From Escherichia coli (GTDB taxonomy: Bacteria; Pseudomonadota; Gammaproteobacteria; Enterobacterales; Enterobacteriaceae), in NCBI RefSeq assembly GCF_030013595.1, contig NZ_CP122770.1: a stretch of DNA of 64,000 bases. The stretch is one strand, 5' to 3'. A program made the translations under genes and the position numbers. Positions 3,111-12,789 of this stretch are shown here, one piece after another (position 1 is the stretch's first letter; every line of letters begins with the position of its first letter). The notes under the pieces are model-generated. The model was given only the letters and a program-made list of their open reading frames with translations, made no database searches and was not told the DNA's origin.

Positions 3111-3890
3111 TTATGGAATTCTTTTGAGCATAGACACCGCATCGGACTCAGGCATCGAAAACTGCACCCGGTGCCGTGCAGCCACATCCAGTGCAAACAC
3201 CTTCGTGTAGACCTCCGTTGAGCTGATGGACTTATGCCCCATCAGACTCTGCAGGACCTTCAGCGGTATACCGGCATACAGCATATGCATCGCATAGGAA
3301 TGGCGGAACGTATGTGGCGTGACCGGGACAGAGAACGTCACACCATCAGCGGCAGCGGCGGCAACCGCCTCCCCAATCCAGGTCCTGACCGTTCTGTCCG
3401 TCACTTCCCAGATCCGCGCTTTCTCTGTCCTGCCTGTTCGTTTATTACGCCGTTCCATGGGGATTTTCAGTGTGGCCACCATCGTCTGCAGCTGGCTGAC
3501 GTACCAGGCGTCGGAGAGCGGAACCAGCCGGTGAGTCTGCTGACCGGCGGGCATTCTTCCTGCCGTCCTGGCGGCTTTTTCGGTCCGCTGCTTCAGAGTG
3601 GCCAGCTGCACAAACGGATACGGAGGCGTGAGCGAAAAATCCCCCCGCGTCAGCGCCAGTGCTTCATTAATGCGCGCACCGGTGTTCCACAGTGTGGCCA
3701 GCAGCATCTTGCGGCGCAGATCCGGGACGTAATGGAGCAGGGCGCTCACTTCAGGGGCCAGCAGGTATTTTGGCAGTTCATCATGAACCATCGACATCTG
3801 GCGGAGTGCCAGCGCTGCCGGATAATCGATGGCAACAGGAAGCTGAGCGGCATCCCGGGCATGGTGGATCGGTGCCGGCAGGTGCTGCAT
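3111..3890 (-). CDS. resD: Tyrosine site-specific recombinase, ResD-like plasmid multimer resolvase (phage integrase family)
   Basis: C-terminal catalytic region HTFRHSYAMHML...LMGHKSISSTEVYT (R..HxxR..Y signature); likely start MQHLPAPIHH at 3890; the close resemblance to F-plasmid ResD is from memory. Confidence 0.75.
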   Translation of the reverse strand: MQHLPAPIHHARDAAQLPVAIDYPAALALRQMSMVHDELPKYLLAPEVSALLHYVPDLRRKMLLATLWNTGARINEALALTRGDFSLTPPYPFVQLATLKQRTEKAARTAGRMPAGQQTHRLVPLSDAWYVSQLQTMVATLKIPMERRNKRTGRTEKARIWEVTDRTVRTWIGEAVAAAAADGVTFSVPVTPHTFRHSYAMHMLYAGIPLKVLQSLMGHKSISSTEVYTKVFALDVAARHRVQFSMPESDAVSMLKRIP

Positions 3891-3891
3891 A

Positions 3892-4305
3892 TCAGTGTTC
3901 ACTCCACGGGGAAACGTCGGGCAGTTTTTCCACAACCCGGTACTTTCCCGGATAACGGAGCTGGTTACCGCCACGCGTCCAGACGGTGACAACAAAACCC
4001 CCGCCCTGGTTGTTTTCGGGGAGCAGGCGATCGCACTGCTCACTCAGCATGTGGATCACGAACGGCGCATCGCTGCCGTCTTCAAATACCAGTTCCAGCG
4101 CATCGCGGCCATCCAGCGTTCCCTTACTGATGATGACGTACTCAGCCCCCCGCATCTCCCTGAGTAAATGTTTTGCCGCATCCGGGACAAGCAGCCTGGC
4201 TGCGCCGGCATTCCAGCTTAGGTAGACATATCCGGCCTGCGCCTGTACAGACTGCCAGTAATCCGTTCCGGCGACAGCCTGACCTTCATTCTCAATAAAA
4301 AACAT
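3892..4305 (-). CDS. Hypothetical protein, translationally coupled upstream partner of the tyrosine recombinase
   Basis: 137-aa ORF starting MFFIENEGQAVAG with AAGGAG RBS; its stop (3892-3894) lies 1 nt before the recombinase ATG; no family recognised. Confidence 0.5.
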   Translation of the reverse strand: MFFIENEGQAVAGTDYWQSVQAQAGYVYLSWNAGAARLLVPDAAKHLLREMRGAEYVIISKGTLDGRDALELVFEDGSDAPFVIHMLSEQCDRLLPENNQGGGFVVTVWTRGGNQLRYPGKYRVVEKLPDVSPWSEH

Positions 4306-4388
4306 GGGTGACTCCTTTTTTCTTTTCCGGGCAGGGACGGTCATGCGATAACGTCATCCGTCATCACTGCCCTTACCGTCACGCCGTC

Positions 4389-4411
4389 TGATAACATCAT
4401 GCCGTTATCAT
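4389..4411. promoter_or_regulatory. Inverted repeat TGATAAC-N8-GTTATCA, candidate recombination (res/rfs-like) site or operator
   Basis: Perfect 7-bp arms with an 8-bp spacer in the intergenic region upstream of the recombinase operon; a further GATAAC copy follows at about 4421. Confidence 0.25.
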
Positions 4412-4746
4412 CATCACCATGATAACAAGCATCCATATAACCACGCCGTTAAATTACCGGAGAGCCGCTTCCGTCAGATCCGACTTTCCTGAATATCACA
4501 ACTTTCCGGAAGTGTATCACGCTGAGGAAATAATCATATCGCTGTTTTCCGCCCCTGCGCGGCGCATCACAGGTCAGGGAGATGACACAACATATAGTGT
4601 CATCAGCAGCTGAATCAGGCACCACATGTTGTGCTGACGGGAGGTGGCGTTGTGTGGGGGGAGTGGGAGATCCGTCTCCGCCGGAAACCGGATCTGCGCG
4701 GCGGGAAACGGGCAAACGATATGATAATTAAGCAACACACATAAAA

Positions 4747-4795
4747 TCATATCAGATATGATTTTCATCGTTAAAAATTAAACAATATCTGATAT
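4747..4795. promoter_or_regulatory. Pair of palindromic ATATCWGATAT operator-like sites upstream of the 4874 operon
   Basis: ATCATATCAGATATGAT (4747-4763) and AATATCTGATATT (4783-4795), with further TCAGATA half-sites up to 4865. Confidence 0.3.
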
Positions 4796-4873
4796 TATCA
4801 GAAATCAGGAGCACACAAATCATGCAGGATATGATTTTTACCTGTCAGAACATTATCAGATGGAGCGTGCAGG

Positions 4874-5131
4874 ATGGATCAGGAAATGACGTTTTCACTC
4901 AGCTATGAACAACTGACCCGGTTTGCGGAAAAACGCATCCGGGAATGCAATCTGGACAGCCAGGGCGCGATTTATCTCTGCGAGTCAGCCAAAGCCGGAG
5001 CCGTGCTGATCTTCTGGCATGAACTGGCCATAAATGGCTATGCCTCAATGAATGCCATAAAGAGACAGGAGCTCATTGACGCCGACTTTCAGCGCCTCAG
5101 AAACCTCATCTGGCCGGAGGATGACAGGTAA
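4874..5131 (+). CDS. Hypothetical 85-aa protein, first gene of a two-gene module
   Basis: ORF with GGAG RBS; its stop overlaps the start of the next gene (TAATGA at 5128-5133), suggesting translational coupling. Confidence 0.45.
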   Translation: MDQEMTFSLSYEQLTRFAEKRIRECNLDSQGAIYLCESAKAGAVLIFWHELAINGYASMNAIKRQELIDADFQRLRNLIWPEDDR

Positions 5132-5721
5132 TGACCCAGAGCCGCCGACCGTCGCCACTGCAGCGGAGAGTGCTGATTGTGCTGGCTGCCCTTGACGAAA
5201 AACGGCCGGGTCCCGTGCTGACGCGGGACCTGGAACGGGTGCTGGAGCGAAGCGGGGAAGCCCCGGTCTACGGGCCAAACCTGCGCGCCTCCTGCCGTCG
5301 TCTGGAGAATGCCGGCTGGCTGCGTACCCTGCGCGCTCCGAACCTGCAGCTGGCAGTGGAGCTGACGGACGCCGGCCGGGCCGTGGCACAGCCTCTGCTG
5401 CTGGCAGAACAGGACCGCCTCCGGGCAGAACAGCGTGCGGCAGAAGTCGTCGTACTGCCGCTGGTCCCGGCAGCAGGTCTGCCCGCAGACGGCACTTCTG
5501 CCACTGATCTGGCGGTGGAGCTGAACGGCATGACGTATCAGGCCTGCCGTGGGGATTTTGTGGTACGTCTCGACGGCAGCACCTGTCTGCAGTTATGGAA
5601 TAAAGAAGGCAGGGTGGTACGCCTGGAGGGCGATCCGCTGGAAGTGGCGCAGTGGCTGCAGGCCTGTCACGATGCCGGAATGGAGGTTCGTGTACAGGTT
5701 AATGAAAGCGTCACCCCGTAA
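5131..5721 (+). CDS. Hypothetical 196-aa protein with an N-terminal winged-helix-like DNA-binding region; markedly GC-rich
   Basis: N-terminal LQRRVLIVLAALDEKRPGPVLTRDLERVLERSG..RRLENAGWLRT resembles MarR/wHTH domains; GC content visibly higher than neighbouring genes. Confidence 0.5.
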   Translation: MTQSRRPSPLQRRVLIVLAALDEKRPGPVLTRDLERVLERSGEAPVYGPNLRASCRRLENAGWLRTLRAPNLQLAVELTDAGRAVAQPLLLAEQDRLRAEQRAAEVVVLPLVPAAGLPADGTSATDLAVELNGMTYQACRGDFVVRLDGSTCLQLWNKEGRVVRLEGDPLEVAQWLQACHDAGMEVRVQVNESVTP

Positions 5722-5738
5722 AAACATACCAGCACGGT

Positions 5739-5954
5739 TTACACGTTATCCCATGGTGGCAGCAGGTTAACTTTCCTGCGCCACCAGTGGAAAGAGGCCA
5801 TGAGCAGTCCGAACAAAAAACCACCCGTGATACTTATAATAATGGCCTCACCTGCCACCATTCCTGACGGCCCCCAGTAGATAAACCACATTGCACATCC
5901 CCAGGAAATGCCCCATAAGCTCCCCATCAACAGCGTGACCTGCCAGAACGGCAT
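5739..5954 (-). pseudogene. 3' portion of a small inner-membrane protein gene split by the IS66-family insertion
   Basis: 71-aa hydrophobic ORF abutting the IS end; after removing the IS and one copy of the target duplication, the minus-strand frame joins in phase with an upstream segment (..MDSKKMWRSNYA, ATG at 8759) to give a roughly 100-aa two-TM protein. Confidence 0.5.
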
Positions 5955-6048
5955 AAAGGGTAATGGCGGAAGCCGGATACCCAGCCGCCAGAGAATACGC
6001 AGAAGAGGAGGGGCATAAGTAAGCGGCTCGCCAGAACCGTATTGATAT

Positions 6049-7620
6049 TTACTGAGAGGTCAGATCAACTTTCCAGGGCAACAGATCGCGTACCCGGTTT
6101 GCCGGCCAATCCTGGATATGCTCAATGACGTAACGCAGCCATTTTTCTGGTTCCACATTGTTCAGACGGCATGTGCCGATCAGCGAGTACAACACCGCCG
6201 CATGTTCGCCACCGCTGTCGGAACCCGCGAAGAGCCAGTTTTTCCGGCCTACGGCCACTCCCCGTAAGGCGTTCTCTGCGATGTTGTTGTCGATTTCCAC
6301 CCAGCCATTACTGCAGTACACGTTCAGGGCCTCCCACTGTTTCAGCAGGTATGCGAACGCTTTTGCCGTATCCGAGTGACGCGACAGTGTTTTCATCTGT
6401 TCCTGTATCCAGTCATACAGTGACTGCATCAGTGGAGCCGCTCTGGCTTTTCTTGCTGCCAGACGCTGTTCTGCTGAACATCCCCGGACTTCTGCCTCGA
6501 TGACATACAGTTCACCGATACGCTGCAGGGCTTCCGTGGTGATGTCGGTTGGCACTCTTGCATGCACATCGTGGATTTTTCTCCGGGCATGGGCCATACA
6601 CGCGGCTTCCGTTATTCTGCCGGATTCGTATAACGCCCGGTAACCACCGTAAGCATCTGCCTGAAGCACACCGCTGTAACCGGCCAGGTGATTCTGTGGA
6701 TGGATACCTTTCCGGTCCGGGCTGTACGCGAACCAGACCGCCGGGGGCATCTGTGAACCGGCGTTACGGTCATCACGGACATAGACCCACAGCCGGGCAG
6801 TTCTTGTTTTACCACTGCCCGGCTCCTGGACCGGAACGGGGATATCATCCGCATGGACTTTACCGGGCATCAGCACATACTGGCGCAGCACGTCATACAG
6901 CGGCTCCAGCAGTTCAGCAACGGCACCGGTCCAGCGCCCCAGCGTGGCGCGGCTCAGTTCCACGCCCTGACGAAGGTATATTTCTGACTGGCGGTATAAC
7001 GGCAGATGGTCTGCATACTTCCCGGTGACGATATGAGCCAGAAGCCCCGCTCCGGCATAACTGCGTGCAATGGGTTTTGAAGGTACTGGTGCCTGCACGA
7101 TATGGTCGCACCGGCAACAGGCCAGTTTCGGACGTTGTGTTTCGATAACCTTAAAAGCGCTGCTGATAAGCTCCAGTTGCTCTGACACATCACACCCCAG
7201 AGGACTGAGGTCACCACCACAGGCCGGGCAGCATTCCTCTTCCGGCCGGATGACCCGGGTTTCACGGGGAAGTGAGGCCGGTAACGGCTTACGGGCTGAA
7301 GACTGGCGCAGGGCGGATGGCAGTACCGGGTCATATTGCTCATCCAGCGTTTCCGCCATTTCTTCCTGAAGTGCGCTGATTCGCTCCTGGGCTTCCTGTA
7401 TCTGCCGTTCGGTTTTAGCGCGAAGTTTTTCTGAGCTTTTACCGAACTGCATGCGCTGCAGTTTCGCAACCAGCGCCTTCAGCCGGTTGATTTCGGAAGC
7501 ATAAGCCGCCACCCGCTGTGAGAGCAGGCGGTTGTATTTCGCCATCTGGCGGATGGTGTCCTGTTGCGTCTGCAACAGTGCCCGCAGGCGGGCATTCTCA
7601 TGAGCAAGTGAGGTGTCCAT
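6049..7620 (-). CDS. tnpC: IS66-family transposase TnpC
   Basis: 523-aa protein with the zinc-finger-like CCPACGG..CCRCDH segment and conserved central and C-terminal regions typical of IS66 TnpC. Confidence 0.9.
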
Positions 7621-7639
7621 ATCCTCACTTTACAACGGG

Positions 7640-7987
7640 TTATATGCGGATGCCAGCGCGTTCCGTTCGTTTCGGGTGCTTCCAGTCGATGCCTTCGAGA
7701 AGCATGGACAACTGAGCCGGAGTAAGGTGAACCTTTCCATCGCGGGTGACCGGCCAGACGAAGCGGCCCCGCTCCAGGCGTTTGGTGAAGAGGCACAGTC
7801 CGTCACTGTCAGCCCACAGCACTTTTATCTGGTCACCCCGGCGTCCGCGGAAGATGAACAGATGCCCGGAGAACGGGTCATCCTTCAGGACGTTCTGAAC
7901 TTTTGAGGCCAGGCCGTTAAAGCCATTTCGCATATCGGTGATACCGGCAACCAGCCAGATACGCGAACCGGCAGGGAGAGATATCAT
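7640..7987 (-). CDS. tnpB: IS66-family accessory protein TnpB
   Basis: 115-aa ORF (MISLPAGSRIWLVAGITDMRNGFNGLA...) in the conserved middle position of IS66 elements. Confidence 0.85.
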   Translation of the reverse strand: MISLPAGSRIWLVAGITDMRNGFNGLASKVQNVLKDDPFSGHLFIFRGRRGDQIKVLWADSDGLCLFTKRLERGRFVWPVTRDGKVHLTPAQLSMLLEGIDWKHPKRTERAGIRI

Positions 7988-8637
7988 CAGTGGCTGCTCC
8001 CTTTCATTTCGCGGATAAGTGTCTGTAATAACGCCGGTGTCAGTTCACCTTTCAGCCTGAGAGTTCCGGCCGGCAGAACCAGCTCGCAGCACAGACTGTC
8101 TGGCAGTGTATTTATCTGTTCAGGTATCTGCACTGGTGCCGGGATTTTATTATCCGGCTCCGGAGTTAACGTCACGGGAAGTAGCGATGTTTCATGTTCG
8201 CCGGGCGGTTGCAGGCCACCGTTACGCCAGAGATGCCGCCAGTTAAAGAGCAGGTTATCGTTAATTCCATTCTCTCGAGCTATTTGTGCGACACAAGCAC
8301 CGGGTAAAAGAGTTTGCTGAACCAGTCTCCATTTAAACTCCGGTGAAAATCGGTTCCGGCGGGGTTTCTCTGCTTTCACAGGCTGAGTCACGGTCGGGGC
8401 TGAAGGGTATCGCCCCGGGAAAAGAGCCCGGGCCAGTTGCCCGCAGGAATATTCACCGGAAAGAGGCCAGTCAGTGAATACCTGGTGAAATCGCCTCACC
8501 AGAGAAAAAATGGCGGTTTTGCTGACACCGGTCTGCGCAGAAATGCGCGGGTACGACAGTGACTCGTCAAATCTCAGCTGTAGCACACGCAGGATCAATT
8601 CCGGATTGTCTGCCAGTACCGCTTTTCGTGCATTCAT
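7987..8637 (-). CDS. tnpA: IS66-family accessory protein TnpA (orf1)
   Basis: 216-aa ORF first in the IS66 operon; its stop overlaps the tnpB start; HTH-like N-terminus. Confidence 0.7.
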   Translation of the reverse strand: MNARKAVLADNPELILRVLQLRFDESLSYPRISAQTGVSKTAIFSLVRRFHQVFTDWPLSGEYSCGQLARALFPGRYPSAPTVTQPVKAEKPRRNRFSPEFKWRLVQQTLLPGACVAQIARENGINDNLLFNWRHLWRNGGLQPPGEHETSLLPVTLTPEPDNKIPAPVQIPEQINTLPDSLCCELVLPAGTLRLKGELTPALLQTLIREMKGSSH

Positions 8638-8926
8638 CTTAAATGTCCCTTTACTGCGAAAATGGACATTAGTATCGGAAACAGGAAAGGGAGGCGAAAG
8701 ACGGTTTAAATGAGACGGTTACGGGCATAATTGCTCCGCCACATCTTTTTGCTGTCCATCAGGGCAATGGCCCGGGCTTTTTTCTGCTCAAAGGTCACAG
8801 GAGCACCTCCGTTCCATGATGTAAACGTGACACAGCTTATTGTTATTGATTATTATTATCATGCTGTGGTTGTGTTGTCATGCATCAGTACACTGACAAA
8901 AGTGCAAAAGAAAGGAAAACAGGCAG

Positions 8927-9283: not shown

Positions 9284-11164
9284 TTAAATACCCCAGAACT
9301 TATTCGCTTTTTCCACAAGCGATTCATCAATCAGCGCACCGGTGACAGCCATCAGTAAACCATACCCGATAATGCCTAAAGCGCTTCCGGTAAGAATACT
9401 GAAGACCAGTGCAACAAGAGCCGTTGCGGCATTGCCTGCTATAATGGCTTCTGTTTTAACAAAAAGAGGACGCCAGTTCTCTGTCCGGACAGCCTTACCA
9501 AACTCAGTGATCCAGTCAGCAAGACTTGTAAATTTTCCTGCATATCCCAGTCCCCGACTGAATCTGTTCAGATTAGACGATATATCAGACAGCTTCACAG
9601 ACTCAAGGGCTGCGGCAATCGCTGCACGATCTTTTGCATTAATTTTTTTGTTAATGTCAGCCCGGTACTTTTCATACGTTTTTAATGCCTCTTCAACATT
9701 ACGTATTTTCTTCCCTTTAGCCTGCCCGGCCATCTCTCTGGCTAACTGCTCAGCTTTTGCACCATATTTTTCTGAAACTGATTTCAGGAACTCTGTTGTG
9801 AAATTAATTGCGTCTTTCGTTGCCTTCAGTTCATCCTGTTTTCTTTTCTCTTCCGCTATCTTCTGATTGATGCCGGCAAGCTGGTTACGGATATTCTCTT
9901 TTTCCTTCAACAGGGCATTAAGAGCGTCATTTGCATGCTTTTGCTCATTTGTTCTGGCACTGAGGTTATTTCTCGCCGAATTTACCGCAGATTCAGCAGA
10001 GGTGATTTTATTTCTGGCATCAAGCAATCGTTGCCGTAACTTATCCCATTCAGCAACTTCAGCATTATAAATTTTCTTGTCACCTTCCACATCCTCTGTC
10101 ACCACCGGATTCCGGTCATTCAGAATATTGCGTTTATAATCCAGACCGGAATGGGTCAGAAGATAATTCAGGTTTGCACGGTTATCGATGACTGCGCTGG
10201 TTGTGATTTTTATCGTACCGGCAAATCTCGGATCACCGCTCACAACAATAGAATGATTTGTTGATGAACGCCCCGGGAATTTTTCAGGGGAAACTATCGT
10301 TTTGCCGTCAGGCGTGTTTTTCTGTTGCGTCAGCTGTTGTTCAGCTCTGGTTAATGCATTACGGGCCGTGTTAAGCGATTCCGTCACTGAACTGAGTTTA
10401 TTCCGGGCCTCTGAAATGGCCCTGTCATTCCGTGTCTGCTGCCCGAGCAGACGGGCCTGTTGTGCATCAAGAACGGCAAGGGCTGCCCCGCCATTTTTTT
10501 CCAGCTCTGACAACCGCGTGTCCAGAATACCTTTTCTGCGCTCGTATTCAGCAAGCATATCAGCGGCCTTCTTGTCTGCGTTCTGCGCATCCTTCTGCCG
10601 TTTTTCAGCCTGTTCGATTAACGACCTGGCCTCCCGGGGAGATATACGAAGAGAATCAGCATCAGCAAACAGCATCCGGCTCTCTGTATGCAGCCGGAGG
10701 GCATCATATCCGGCGATTTCAGTACGGAATCCGTATTCTCTCAGCTCTGCCTGCAGGAGTCTGAACTCCTGTCGTGTAATATCAGCGGCATCTGCGTTTC
10801 CGGCACGGAGTGTTTTCAGTGTGTTTTCATCTTTTTCCCTTGCAGCAATCGCCGCAGAGAGGCGTTTTCCGGCTTCAGTACGCTTATTCTCATTCTCTTT
10901 CTGCTGCGCGCTGAGCGTGTTTTTGTACGCTGTGATTTCCTTGTCCCTTTTTTCGATATCACTTCGGGTTGGGGAATCATCAACCCACTCGTTTCCGCCC
11001 CAGATGGTTTTGTTCCCGAAGGAACTCCATGCAGGCGGGGTACCATGAAAGACATCGACACGTGGAGGGTTTACATAAATATCAACGGCCATAATTTCAT
11101 GGCCATCTGAATCATACCCCAGCGATTCTGCACCGGGATTTGTAATACGTACAGGGTCAGACAT
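9284..11164 (-). CDS. cia: Colicin Ia (or Ib) pore-forming bacteriocin, 626 aa
   Basis: Full-length match by recollection to colicin Ia/Ib: N-terminus MSDPVRITNPGAESLGYDSDGHEIMAVDIYVNPPRVDVFHG, long coiled-coil central region, C-terminal channel domain with hydrophobic hairpin ..AGNAATALVALVFSILTGSALGIIGYGLLMAVTGALIDESLVEKANKFWGI. Confidence 0.95.
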   Translation of the reverse strand: MSDPVRITNPGAESLGYDSDGHEIMAVDIYVNPPRVDVFHGTPPAWSSFGNKTIWGGNEWVDDSPTRSDIEKRDKEITAYKNTLSAQQKENENKRTEAGKRLSAAIAAREKDENTLKTLRAGNADAADITRQEFRLLQAELREYGFRTEIAGYDALRLHTESRMLFADADSLRISPREARSLIEQAEKRQKDAQNADKKAADMLAEYERRKGILDTRLSELEKNGGAALAVLDAQQARLLGQQTRNDRAISEARNKLSSVTESLNTARNALTRAEQQLTQQKNTPDGKTIVSPEKFPGRSSTNHSIVVSGDPRFAGTIKITTSAVIDNRANLNYLLTHSGLDYKRNILNDRNPVVTEDVEGDKKIYNAEVAEWDKLRQRLLDARNKITSAESAVNSARNNLSARTNEQKHANDALNALLKEKENIRNQLAGINQKIAEEKRKQDELKATKDAINFTTEFLKSVSEKYGAKAEQLAREMAGQAKGKKIRNVEEALKTYEKYRADINKKINAKDRAAIAAALESVKLSDISSNLNRFSRGLGYAGKFTSLADWITEFGKAVRTENWRPLFVKTEAIIAGNAATALVALVFSILTGSALGIIGYGLLMAVTGALIDESLVEKANKFWGI

Positions 11165-11205
11165 TCGGTATCTCCTTCATCCTCTGAGGAAAACAAATGA
11201 ATTAA

Positions 11206-11270
11206 CTGCTTACGCATATGGATACATATACAGTATTAATTTATTAAGGAGAAAATGGCATGTCAAGATT
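11206..11270 (-). promoter_or_regulatory. Colicin promoter with overlapping LexA (SOS) operator
   Basis: Minus strand reads TTGACA (-35, 11261-11266) ...TAATAAATTAATA... then TACTGTATATGTATCCATATGCGTAAGCAG (11206-11236), containing the CTGT-N8 LexA half-sites typical of colicin operators, followed by GAAGGAG RBS and the ATG. Confidence 0.6.
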
Positions 11271-11442
11271 TGATGATAGTGATTATCATTAACATGAAGT
11301 GATGTTACACCGTTCAGAAAGCCTGCTGACGCTGTGGCAGCATCACAGTCTGGGTATTCTCTGGTGCAATACAAAAACCGGACTTTCCCGTAACAACAGA
11401 CAATGTTACGGGAAAAGTTACAGAACTGAGCCACAAAATATC

Positions 11443-12789
11443 TCAGTACCTGAGATGCATAAAAACACCGTACATATGTTTCTTAAAAGGGGGATGATCG
11501 TTATCCAGCCATTTCGGTGGATCGGTATGCAGAACACCAATCTGCTTCATGCCGGTATGCTGCCTGGATTTTCTCGCGCAGTAATCACTGTCTTCATATC
11601 CCATCGTTTCGATGACCACTCTGGCCGTCTTTCCGTCAGGAGCCCTTGCTGTGACAATGAAATCCGGCAGTACATATTTCTTTTCACCATTAACATAAAC
11701 TTCTGTATCAAACAGGGGCCTTTCCAGACTTAATTCCGGCGTACCTGGCTTTCTTTTAAGCCAGCTGGCCACATTCAGAAGAGCAGTGAGCGTGTTTCGT
11801 TCCAGTTTGCTGTCCACAGGCACCGGACATGTCAGTTGATAAAGAGCATGAGCATACCCTTCACTGCAGATGATTCTGCCATCGGCACTCCGGCAAAAAG
11901 CAAGAATAACCCAGTAAGGGGGACGTATTCCGCCCTGCGCTTCACCATTAATACTGATCCCCCGCACAGGTCTGATGACCTGAATATTACCGTTCGCCCA
12001 GTGAATTTCCACAGCATCACGACAGATGTGCTGCGCCATAAAAATCTGAAAGAACATATGCTTTCTTCTGGCAGGCCAGTGTCGTTCTGAATTCTCCAGC
12101 GTTTCCATTAACCGCTCCTGAGACCTTTCAGACATTCCTGGCCGGAAATGGATAATTTCAGATAAGGCTCTTCCCCGAATATACTCCTGCTGTAGTGTAA
12201 CCTGCCGTATGGCATCAAGACACTCACGATAATTAGTCCGGATACGGGGATTAGCCAGGGAATCCAGTTTATTCAGCCCTGCATCTTCAATAAGCGACAG
12301 GAGTAAACGGCCAAGGCGCGGACGTTTCTTGCGAACGGAGGAGCGCTCACCATTATGGTAAGCAGAGCGGGCCTGCAGTCTGATAACAGAATTACTGTCA
12401 TCAGGTGGTAAAAAGTTTCTGTAATTTATACGGGTGCTAACGGGATGCCGGCTTGCTCCGAAGGATGTTTCCTCTTCATTTCCGGATAACTGACGATACA
12501 TGGGGCATTCAGGTGCATGCTCATGATTAAAACTGGACAGATAAAGAGTACCCGTATTGTTTTTAAGAGCAGCAAAATTCATGGCCGGCGAATCTCCCGG
12601 AATACAGTCACACTGTAACCATGCATCATACTCACGCATTTCCCGGAGAAGAGCATTGGCCAGGTTATGTTGTGCCATGGTTGCTGGCCTTTTCAGTCCA
12701 CAGACCGTCTTTACTGCAGTCTCTTCCTCACTGCTAAGCTCCCGAATCACTTTGCCCCGGGGATTCTTCTTTACAAGTATCATTGGCAT
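11443..12789 (-). CDS. Hypothetical 448-aa protein with a Cys/His cluster and a possible nuclease-like C-terminal region
   Basis: Long ORF with GGAG RBS before ATG at 12789 (MPMILVKK..); motifs CDCIPGD and HEHAPECP; C-terminal YVLPDFIVTARAPDGKTARVVIETMGYE loosely resembles a restriction-endonuclease-like core; no family assigned. Confidence 0.6.
   Translation of the reverse strand: MPMILVKKNPRGKVIRELSSEEETAVKTVCGLKRPATMAQHNLANALLREMREYDAWLQCDCIPGDSPAMNFAALKNNTGTLYLSSFNHEHAPECPMYRQLSGNEEETSFGASRHPVSTRINYRNFLPPDDSNSVIRLQARSAYHNGERSSVRKKRPRLGRLLLSLIEDAGLNKLDSLANPRIRTNYRECLDAIRQVTLQQEYIRGRALSEIIHFRPGMSERSQERLMETLENSERHWPARRKHMFFQIFMAQHICRDAVEIHWANGNIQVIRPVRGISINGEAQGGIRPPYWVILAFCRSADGRIICSEGYAHALYQLTCPVPVDSKLERNTLTALLNVASWLKRKPGTPELSLERPLFDTEVYVNGEKKYVLPDFIVTARAPDGKTARVVIETMGYEDSDYCARKSRQHTGMKQIGVLHTDPPKWLDNDHPPFKKHMYGVFMHLRY

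Follow-up and report, generated by a model that had tools for sequence, protein, structure and literature searches.

The closest described systems to the locus reported here are autorepressors of the MarR/PadR/HxlR type, in which palindromic operators overlap the promoter of the regulator's own gene, and the BrxR/CapW (WYL-type) and CapH-CapP regulators, which are winged-helix proteins encoded at the 5' end of operons with defence or competition cargo. The locus compared with them is the ydfA-ydeA cassette, found in 64 kb of Escherichia coli DNA (contig NZ_CP122770.1) that represents an IncI-type conjugative plasmid; this whole stretch is called the window below. On balance, with slightly better than even confidence, we consider the unit from about 4669 to 5721 to be an autorepressed transcription-factor cassette, with YdeA as the operator-binding repressor and YdfA as its partner. 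The narrower proposal that YdeA is an operator-binding autoregulator, drawn from sequence comparison and a structure model, is held with fairly high confidence.

The cassette works most like an autorepressor of the MarR/PadR/HxlR type, although it fails membership by sequence. Its palindromic operators overlap its own promoter with half-site centres one helical turn apart, a resemblance read from sequence only, and YdeA has a winged helix-turn-helix fold with a flanking helix. Unlike these regulators, YdeA has no significant match to their Pfam or NCBIfam families, the cassette includes a conserved, translationally coupled small upstream partner gene, and its three operators are spaced at 36-37 bp. 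A likeness to BrxR/CapW and CapH-CapP is seen in the position of a winged-helix regulator at the 5' end of operons with defence or competition cargo (ibfA, or a DpdC-like protein with an SNase-type nuclease). However, YdeA lacks the WYL (Sm-like) domain of BrxR/CapW, no protease partner as in CapH-CapP belongs to the cassette, the cargo is not consistently defensive, as it includes Hha, ProQ/FinO-like and membrane proteins, and none directly follows the cassette in this window. The full-length JetA architecture of Wadjet, with JetB, JetC and JetD neighbours, does not apply to YdeA. What is new here is a predicted autoregulated winged-helix cassette with a novel C-terminal domain and a partner protein; the genes themselves had already been named.

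An earlier note, made from the sequence of the window, had proposed two open reading frames (ORFs), translationally coupled and forming a cassette of a small protein and a DNA-binding protein. Both ORFs were confirmed on the + strand at the coordinates given in Table 1, in a single copy in the window, and the pair was borne out as a self-contained unit; genes up- and downstream vary between homologous loci, whereas the cassette is constant. The ydfA stop and the ydeA start overlap by 1 base, in TAATG, and an ATGA, GTGA or TAATG overlap is kept at most homologous loci, in agreement with the proposed coupling. The ratios of nonsynonymous to synonymous substitution rates (dN/dS) against twelve diverged homologous loci were 0.20-0.42 for ydfA and 0.19-0.43 for ydeA, indicating purifying selection on both. 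Based on these ratios and the retained stop/start overlap, ydfA and ydeA are real, co-translated genes. Transcripts of both were detected by quantitative reverse transcription PCR (qRT-PCR) in the ColV-Ia plasmid pS88 (PMC3438092), and RT-PCR in the R64-like plasmid pUA1135 detected intergenic junctions joining ydfA, ydeA, ibfA and the next gene (PMC12111858).

Judged by identity, the gene pair is the ydfA/ydeA of R64/ColIb-P9-type plasmids and is already in databases. The window proteins are 96-100% identical to the ydfA and ydeA products of R64, ColIb-P9 and pS88; the archetype ColIb-P9 has the pair at 11026-11873, and the names are annotated for the same pair in LC567088, a Japanese IncI plasmid record. 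In RefSeq, both proteins are labelled 'hypothetical protein'. In the searchable literature we found the pair named and no description of its fold, operators or function, and the I-complex TraDIS (transposon-directed insertion-site sequencing) paper makes no mention of ydfA/ydeA. The description of the module as having no recognisable function is thus half right: no library names a function, but the pair was already named.

The evidence for autoregulation comes in large part from the DNA upstream of ydfA. The two ATATCWGATAT palindromes reported in the earlier note are both present as exact copies (4749-4759 and 4785-4795), and with up to one mismatch there are 3 matches in the window against 0.79 expected from shuffles. 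However, each copy is only the middle of a longer element. This is the 17-bp inverted repeat ATCATA-N5-TATGAT, which occurs as three operators (O1-O3) and a half-site (O0). We aligned the 230 bp 5' of ydfA from 19 distinct homologous loci of Escherichia, Salmonella, Klebsiella, Citrobacter, Enterobacter, Buttiauxella, Phytobacter, Raoultella, Pluralibacter and Superficieibacter. In nearly all 19 regions, the operator centres lie 120/121, 84/85 and 47/48 bp upstream of the ydfA ATG, and each region carries on average 3.8 sites with up to 3 mismatches, compared with 0.27 in shuffled sequence. The outer ATCATA/TATGAT hexamers are 79-96% conserved per position, while the inner 5 bp are free. Two loci (L015 and L026; homologous loci are designated by L numbers) have lost exactly one 36-37-bp operator unit. 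In the window, O1 is the core of a perfect 23-bp palindrome (4743-4765), and most relatives have a perfect ATCATATCTGATATGAT at the O2 position. A search of the window for further operators with up to one mismatch, which might indicate a wider YdeA regulon, found none beyond this promoter.

These sites are placed over a predicted sigma-70 promoter. Its elements are a -35 hexamer TTAAAA (4771-4776), a 16-nt spacer and an extended -10 element TGaTATTAT with its hexamer at 4793-4798, so that the right half of O2 coincides with the -10 hexamer. The inferred transcription start lies near 4805; in the pUA1135 homologue, BProm predicts transcription to begin 69 bp upstream of the start codon, which corresponds to 4805 here (PMC12111858). 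O1 ends 8 bp 5' of the predicted -35, and O3 spans about +14 to +30 from the inferred start. As far as these predictions go, the layout matches a promoter that its own gene product shuts off. The suggestion that the palindromes are operators has therefore gained ground, as they overlap the predicted promoter and their position and sequence are conserved in diverged relatives. On the + strand, no terminator was detected 3' of ydeA in the window. Separately, a promoter-like site was noticed on the opposite strand at 4746-4774 (-35 TTAACG, -10 TATGAT), whose -10 is the left half of O1; since this site uses an operator half as its -10, the operators might also control leftward transcription.

Concerning the protein that may read these sites, the structure model of YdeA, built from a 20-sequence alignment, had a mean predicted local distance difference test score (pLDDT) of 88.5. 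Helices at residues 9-24, 31-41 and 48-60 and a two-strand wing at 64-78 form a winged helix-turn-helix, which bears out the N-terminal winged-helix-like region proposed for the 196-amino acid (aa) protein. A long helix follows, then a poorly ordered linker, and then a C-terminal domain modelled as five main strands, a helix and one further strand. The isoelectric point (pI) is 11.2 for residues 1-104 versus 4.35 for residues 105-196. The profile searches that had been recommended were run on both proteins and gave no clear homology to a characterised family. For YdeA, nothing significant was found in Pfam, NCBIfam, PADLOC or PDB sequences, with the sole exception that its winged helix matches PHROG 19460, a family of unknown function (E 4e-7); a PDB sequence profile search returned nothing below E 0.09. 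YdfA has no significant match in Pfam, NCBIfam, PADLOC, PHROGs or the PDB sequence profile search.

A set of 1.84 billion proteins contains 218 YdeA representatives at the 50% identity level, many of which are fragments. A profile of its C-terminal domain, searched against 5.8 billion proteins, retrieved family members only, in no other domain context; the YdfA profile against the same number likewise retrieved family members only, and neither search turned up fusions, annotated relatives or Pfam domains. The YdeA C-terminal domain and YdfA are without structural or sequence relatives outside the family. Many YdeA relatives are longer (289-428 aa) and carry an additional C-terminal extension of 100-230 residues; the 196-aa YdeA of the window stops exactly where this extension starts. 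The extension has no Pfam, NCBIfam or PADLOC match. Two candidate identities for it were rejected: it is not a YdfA relative (hhalign probability 0.3%), and it is unrelated to the 164-aa gene 3' of ydeA in Klebsiella plasmids.

The YdfA/YdeA family is small and confined to Enterobacterales, and its conservation is uneven. Averaged over all pairs among 21 loci, identity is highest in the winged helix (residues 5-80; 87%), lower in the C-terminal domain (64%) and the long helix (56%), and lowest in YdfA (45%). Within the close set, much of the wing does not vary at all, nor do residues N50, L51, R52, S54, C55 and R57 of the recognition helix, in parallel with the invariant operator half-sites. 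In two distant homologues with a different recognition helix (L012 and L013), the operator motif is absent upstream. By these comparisons, the presumed DNA-reading part of YdeA and the operator sites are held constant together and the remainder diversifies. The cassette is a mosaic as well: the distances of the N-terminal and C-terminal domains are uncorrelated (0.04).

Based on this evidence, the following mechanism is proposed. A YdeA dimer would bind each of the three 17-bp palindromes through its winged helices, and the 11 bp between half-site centres, equal to one helical turn, would suit a dimer of the MarR/PadR type. Occupancy of O1-O3 would block RNA polymerase at the single promoter and so limit expression of ydfA-ydeA and of any co-directional downstream cargo; the promoter would be shut off because O1 adjoins the -35 on its 5' side, O2 covers the extended -10 and O3 follows shortly after the transcription start. 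Translational coupling would supply YdfA in fixed proportion to YdeA, and YdfA would most likely act as a co-repressor or anti-repressor on the parts of YdeA that do not bind DNA. We infer the DNA binding, repression and dimerisation of YdeA, as well as any role of YdfA, from the in silico observations above.

Several points weigh against this proposal. The winged helix of YdeA has no significant match to a Pfam regulator, the best being PaaX at E 0.071. The role assigned to YdfA is a guess, and a test for co-evolution of YdfA with the YdeA C-terminal domain gave only a weak, borderline correlation of their divergence (Spearman 0.22, permutation p about 0.05). The 36-37 bp between operators amount to about 3.5 helical turns, which puts adjoining operators on opposite faces of the helix and does not suggest simple in-phase looping. 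O2 is degenerate in this plasmid. The TATGAT half-sites resemble -10 hexamers, and their conservation could partly reflect promoter function. Finally, no co-directional cargo comes directly after the cassette in this window; for this reason, the cassette here would regulate mainly itself, and, O2 being degenerate as well, it may be partly decayed or serve another purpose.

Elsewhere, the downstream genes are of several kinds. In R64-type plasmids, the abortive-infection gene ibfA lies downstream of the cassette (PMC12111858). Klebsiella-type plasmids carry a 164-aa protein, a membrane protein and Hha, and other loci carry either a DUF6884/DpdC-like protein with an SNase-type nuclease or a ProQ/FinO-like protein. 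At L005-L008, L018, L020 and L026, the cassette, usually with a long YdeA of 400-420 aa, is followed by a stand-alone DUF6884/DpdC-like gene (PADLOC DpdC, E 7e-41); most of these loci also have the SNase-type nuclease after it, and no other dpd genes are present at them.

The partner protein raises the question of which product the cassette serves. YdfA is an acidic protein of 85 aa (pI 4.9) with a ribosome-binding site GGAG at 4862-4865. Two motifs are conserved in it, FSLSYEQLT near the N-terminus, strongly so, and DxDxxRL near the C-terminus; its relatives form 421 clusters at 90% identity. It may be that YdfA is the real product, a modulator directed at the host or a competitor, an anti-defence or an exclusion factor, and that YdeA only keeps its expression low. 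Several observations fit this: ydfA is the first gene and immediately precedes ydeA in about 21 of the 25 loci examined, its product is acidic and diverges fast (45% mean identity against 87% for the winged helix), and ydfA has been swapped by recombination independently of ydeA. In the Escherichia contigs L015 and L033 (4747-5591), YdeA shares 96% identity with its window counterpart (dS 0.06) and YdfA only 58% (dS 0.76), which indicates recombination inside the cassette. Fast divergence and recombinational exchange are common for proteins that meet variable targets. However, no similarity to anti-restriction, anti-defence or exclusion families was found, the dN/dS of 0.2-0.4 is that of ordinary purifying selection and not of an arms race, the cassette lies outside the leading region, the usual place of early-expressed anti-defence genes, and YdeA relatives exist without ydfA. 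We therefore regard a YdfA payload kept in check by YdeA as unlikely.

Upstream of ydfA, a 28-codon ORF (4822-4908) that overlaps both O3 and the start of ydfA is preceded by AGGAG, a strong Shine-Dalgarno sequence. The ORF is unconserved, its Klebsiella homologue stops after two codons, and it was rejected as a gene, which it probably is not.

A further-reaching idea, which we also regard as unlikely, is that the cassette is an unrecognised plasmid switch and not a plain autorepressor. YdeA would then repress the cassette, and the defence or competition genes behind it, on another plasmid that shares or enters the cell, and YdfA and the C-terminal domain would be the variable input that releases repression. 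The YdeA of one plasmid could act on the cassette of another because IncI, IncF and Klebsiella F-type plasmids differ hardly at all in the winged helix and the operators, whereas YdfA and the C-terminal parts of YdeA diversify.

The pairing of the two genes also bears on a type II toxin-antitoxin (addiction) module, in which one protein would be a toxin and YdeA the autoregulating antitoxin. The cassette resembles such modules (AbiEi/AbiEii, HigBA) in having two small overlapping genes behind palindromic operators at their own promoter; moreover, it is plasmid-borne and very common, adjoins resolution and partition genes and moves between unrelated backbones, and YdeA residues 18-68 weakly resemble the AbiEi antitoxin winged helix (Pfam AbiEi_4, E 0.2). 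Nevertheless, no toxin family, domain or fold was found in either protein, and the acidic YdfA matches no known toxin family. The AbiE comparison goes no further than the E value of 0.2, as no nucleotidyltransferase gene adjoins the cassette and PADLOC gave no Abi match. In type II modules, the pairing is strict, whereas ydeA occurs without ydfA in L009-L011 (long YdeA alone), in the distant L012-L014 and in L024, and the combination of 96% identical YdeA with 58% identical YdfA in L015 and L033 argues against tight cognate pairing. The DNA-binding protein is here the larger one, encoded by the second gene, and the 100-230-residue extension in many of its relatives is unusual for antitoxins. 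In L002 (6143-7816), on the IncF ColIa-type plasmid pMNCRE44_6, an element of the IS3 insertion sequence (IS) family replaces the promoter, O0-O2 and everything 5' of the O3 right half, and ydeA has an in-frame internal deletion that leaves 169 aa. A whole-operon deletion was obtained in pUA1135 (PMC12111858); it is neutral on this question because both genes were removed at once. Taken together, these data make a toxin-antitoxin module quite improbable, although an addiction or exclusion module of a new kind, its toxin unrecognised so far, may be concerned. Among the addiction, exclusion or regulatory functions envisaged in the earlier note, the conserved operators on the promoter speak for the regulatory one, and the lack of a toxin-like family or fold, the loose pairing and the loss of operators and promoter to an IS in IncF lineages leave the other two unsupported.

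Regarding its setting, the cassette lies in the stability/accessory region of the plasmid and not in the leading region, and the window also carries partition systems of the ParM/ParR and ParA types, the gene of a ResD-like recombinase, and the colicin Ia and immunity genes. In L024 (Edwardsiella hoshinae, 3718-5612), ydeA comes directly after a ParA operon, an array of CTTGTTAT iterons and an unrelated 85-aa ORF, with no ydfA, which is a different wiring of the same DNA-binding protein. It is very improbable that YdeA is a centromere- or resolution-site-associated maintenance accessory whose repeated sites serve plasmid segregation or the resolution of multimers in cis. Of 25 loci, 8 have a ResD-like recombinase no more than 3.5 kb away, and the L024 ydeA follows a ParA operon with iterons, but the conserved unit has no nucleoside triphosphatase (NTPase) partner, in contrast to the cognate-NTPase operon adjacent to the repeated sites of ParR/TubR systems, its neighbours vary, the window already has two partition systems, and the position of the sites over a promoter is typical of a repressor.

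The cassette is of note mainly because it is extremely common and unstudied. By tblastn, YdeA was found in at least 5,000 and YdfA in 4,242 of the 72,556 plasmids in PLSDB. Among 5,426 complete E. coli genomes, 2,106 gave a DNA match to the cassette, and in 1,647 (about 30%) the match covered 80% of it or more; in these genomes, 2,861 of 2,902 matching places were plasmid-borne. The carriers include IncI1, IncF and Klebsiella F-type resistance and virulence plasmids, and few uncharacterised gene pairs are more common on the plasmids of enterobacteria. If YdeA represses the cargo operons, it would set the expression, and hence the cost and benefit, of phage-defence or competition cargo, and, given the conserved operator, plasmids in the same cell could have their regulation coupled through the cassette. 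Characterising the YdeA C-terminal domain and YdfA would define new families. If the pair is only a local autoregulator with no further output, the result would be an ordinary one.

The base composition of the cassette is uneven. With 65.1% guanine plus cytosine (GC) and a third-position value (GC3) of 0.69, ydeA is the GC maximum of the window (mean 48.4%), and only 0.1% of same-size window stretches reach its value. The earlier description of a GC-rich two-gene module applies to ydeA but not to ydfA, which has 51.6% GC; the operator region has 31.8%. Nearly all close relatives show the same step, with ydeA at 60-72% GC (GC3 up to 0.82) versus 47-57% for ydfA, so that the bias is old and specific to ydeA rather than a property of the two-gene module. 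The high GC does not extend to more distant homologues (44-51%). A foreign origin would fit the bias but is not proved by it; no high-GC donor lineage was found, every relative coming from Enterobacterales.

Table 1. Features of the ydfA-ydeA cassette, in window coordinates.
Feature	Position	Strand	Basis or remark
Inverted repeat GATCCG-N14-CGGATC	4669-4697		Two GATC (Dam) sites; unique in window
O0, half-site GATATGAT	4718-4725	+	GATATGAT or AATATGAT in nearly all aligned upstream regions
O1, ATCATATCAGATATGAT	4746-4762		Centre -120; position conserved across loci
Predicted sigma-70 promoter	4771-4798	+	Consensus scan; 9/12 consensus matches, TG present
O2, ACAATATCTGATATTAT	4782-4798		Degenerate here (ACAATA...TATTAT); centre -84/-85
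O3, ATCATGCAGGATATGAT	4819-4835		5' untranslated region; centre -47/-48, conserved
ydfA	4874-5131	+	85-aa ORF
ydeA	5131-5721	+	196-aa ORF
YdeA winged helix-turn-helix (residues 9-78)	5155-5364	+	Structure model
YdeA long helix (residues 80-104)	5368-5442	+	Structure model
YdeA beta-rich C-terminal domain (residues 127-190)	5509-5700	+	Structure model

The GATCCG-N14-CGGATC inverted repeat (Table 1), for which 0.11 matches are expected by chance in the window, is conserved in the aligned upstream regions, and the DNA further upstream is unrelated between loci. On this comparison, the repeat appears as the left edge of the conserved cassette. It is followed, just 5' of the operators, by a conserved stretch TGCGCGGCGGGAAAC (4695-4709). 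An RNA hairpin was considered and rejected for the repeat, as its arms are invariant or show one-sided changes with no compensation; without such covariation, it looks like a protein-binding or recombination site. An Rfam scan of 4000-6200 at E values up to 1 gave no match.

To the left of the cassette, a long intergenic region (4345-4665) separates it from yedA/resD. Several short repeats occur in this region, among them GATAACGTCAT/GATAACATCAT, as does a 27-bp imperfect palindrome (4586-4633). Other backbones share the region along with the ResD-like recombinase, and it probably contains the rfsF resolution site mentioned in PMC8004404. A 150-aa ORF on the - strand (3892-4344), known as yedA in pCH56, overlaps the 5' end of the gene for the ResD-like recombinase and has no family match in NCBIfam, PADLOC or PHROGs.

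To the right, the next gene after ydeA is the convergent ybaA (DUF6404), which is split by an IS66-family element and followed by the colicin Ia immunity and colicin genes. The element (6019-8722; 2,704 bp) carries - strand ORFs of 216, 115 and 523 aa and has an 8-bp target duplication, and the ybaA/DUF6404 fragments lie on either side of it at 5739-6020 and 8724-8798. Compared with plasmid L001, its left flank is 97.9% and its right flank 100% identical, and the two flanks therefore differ in history.

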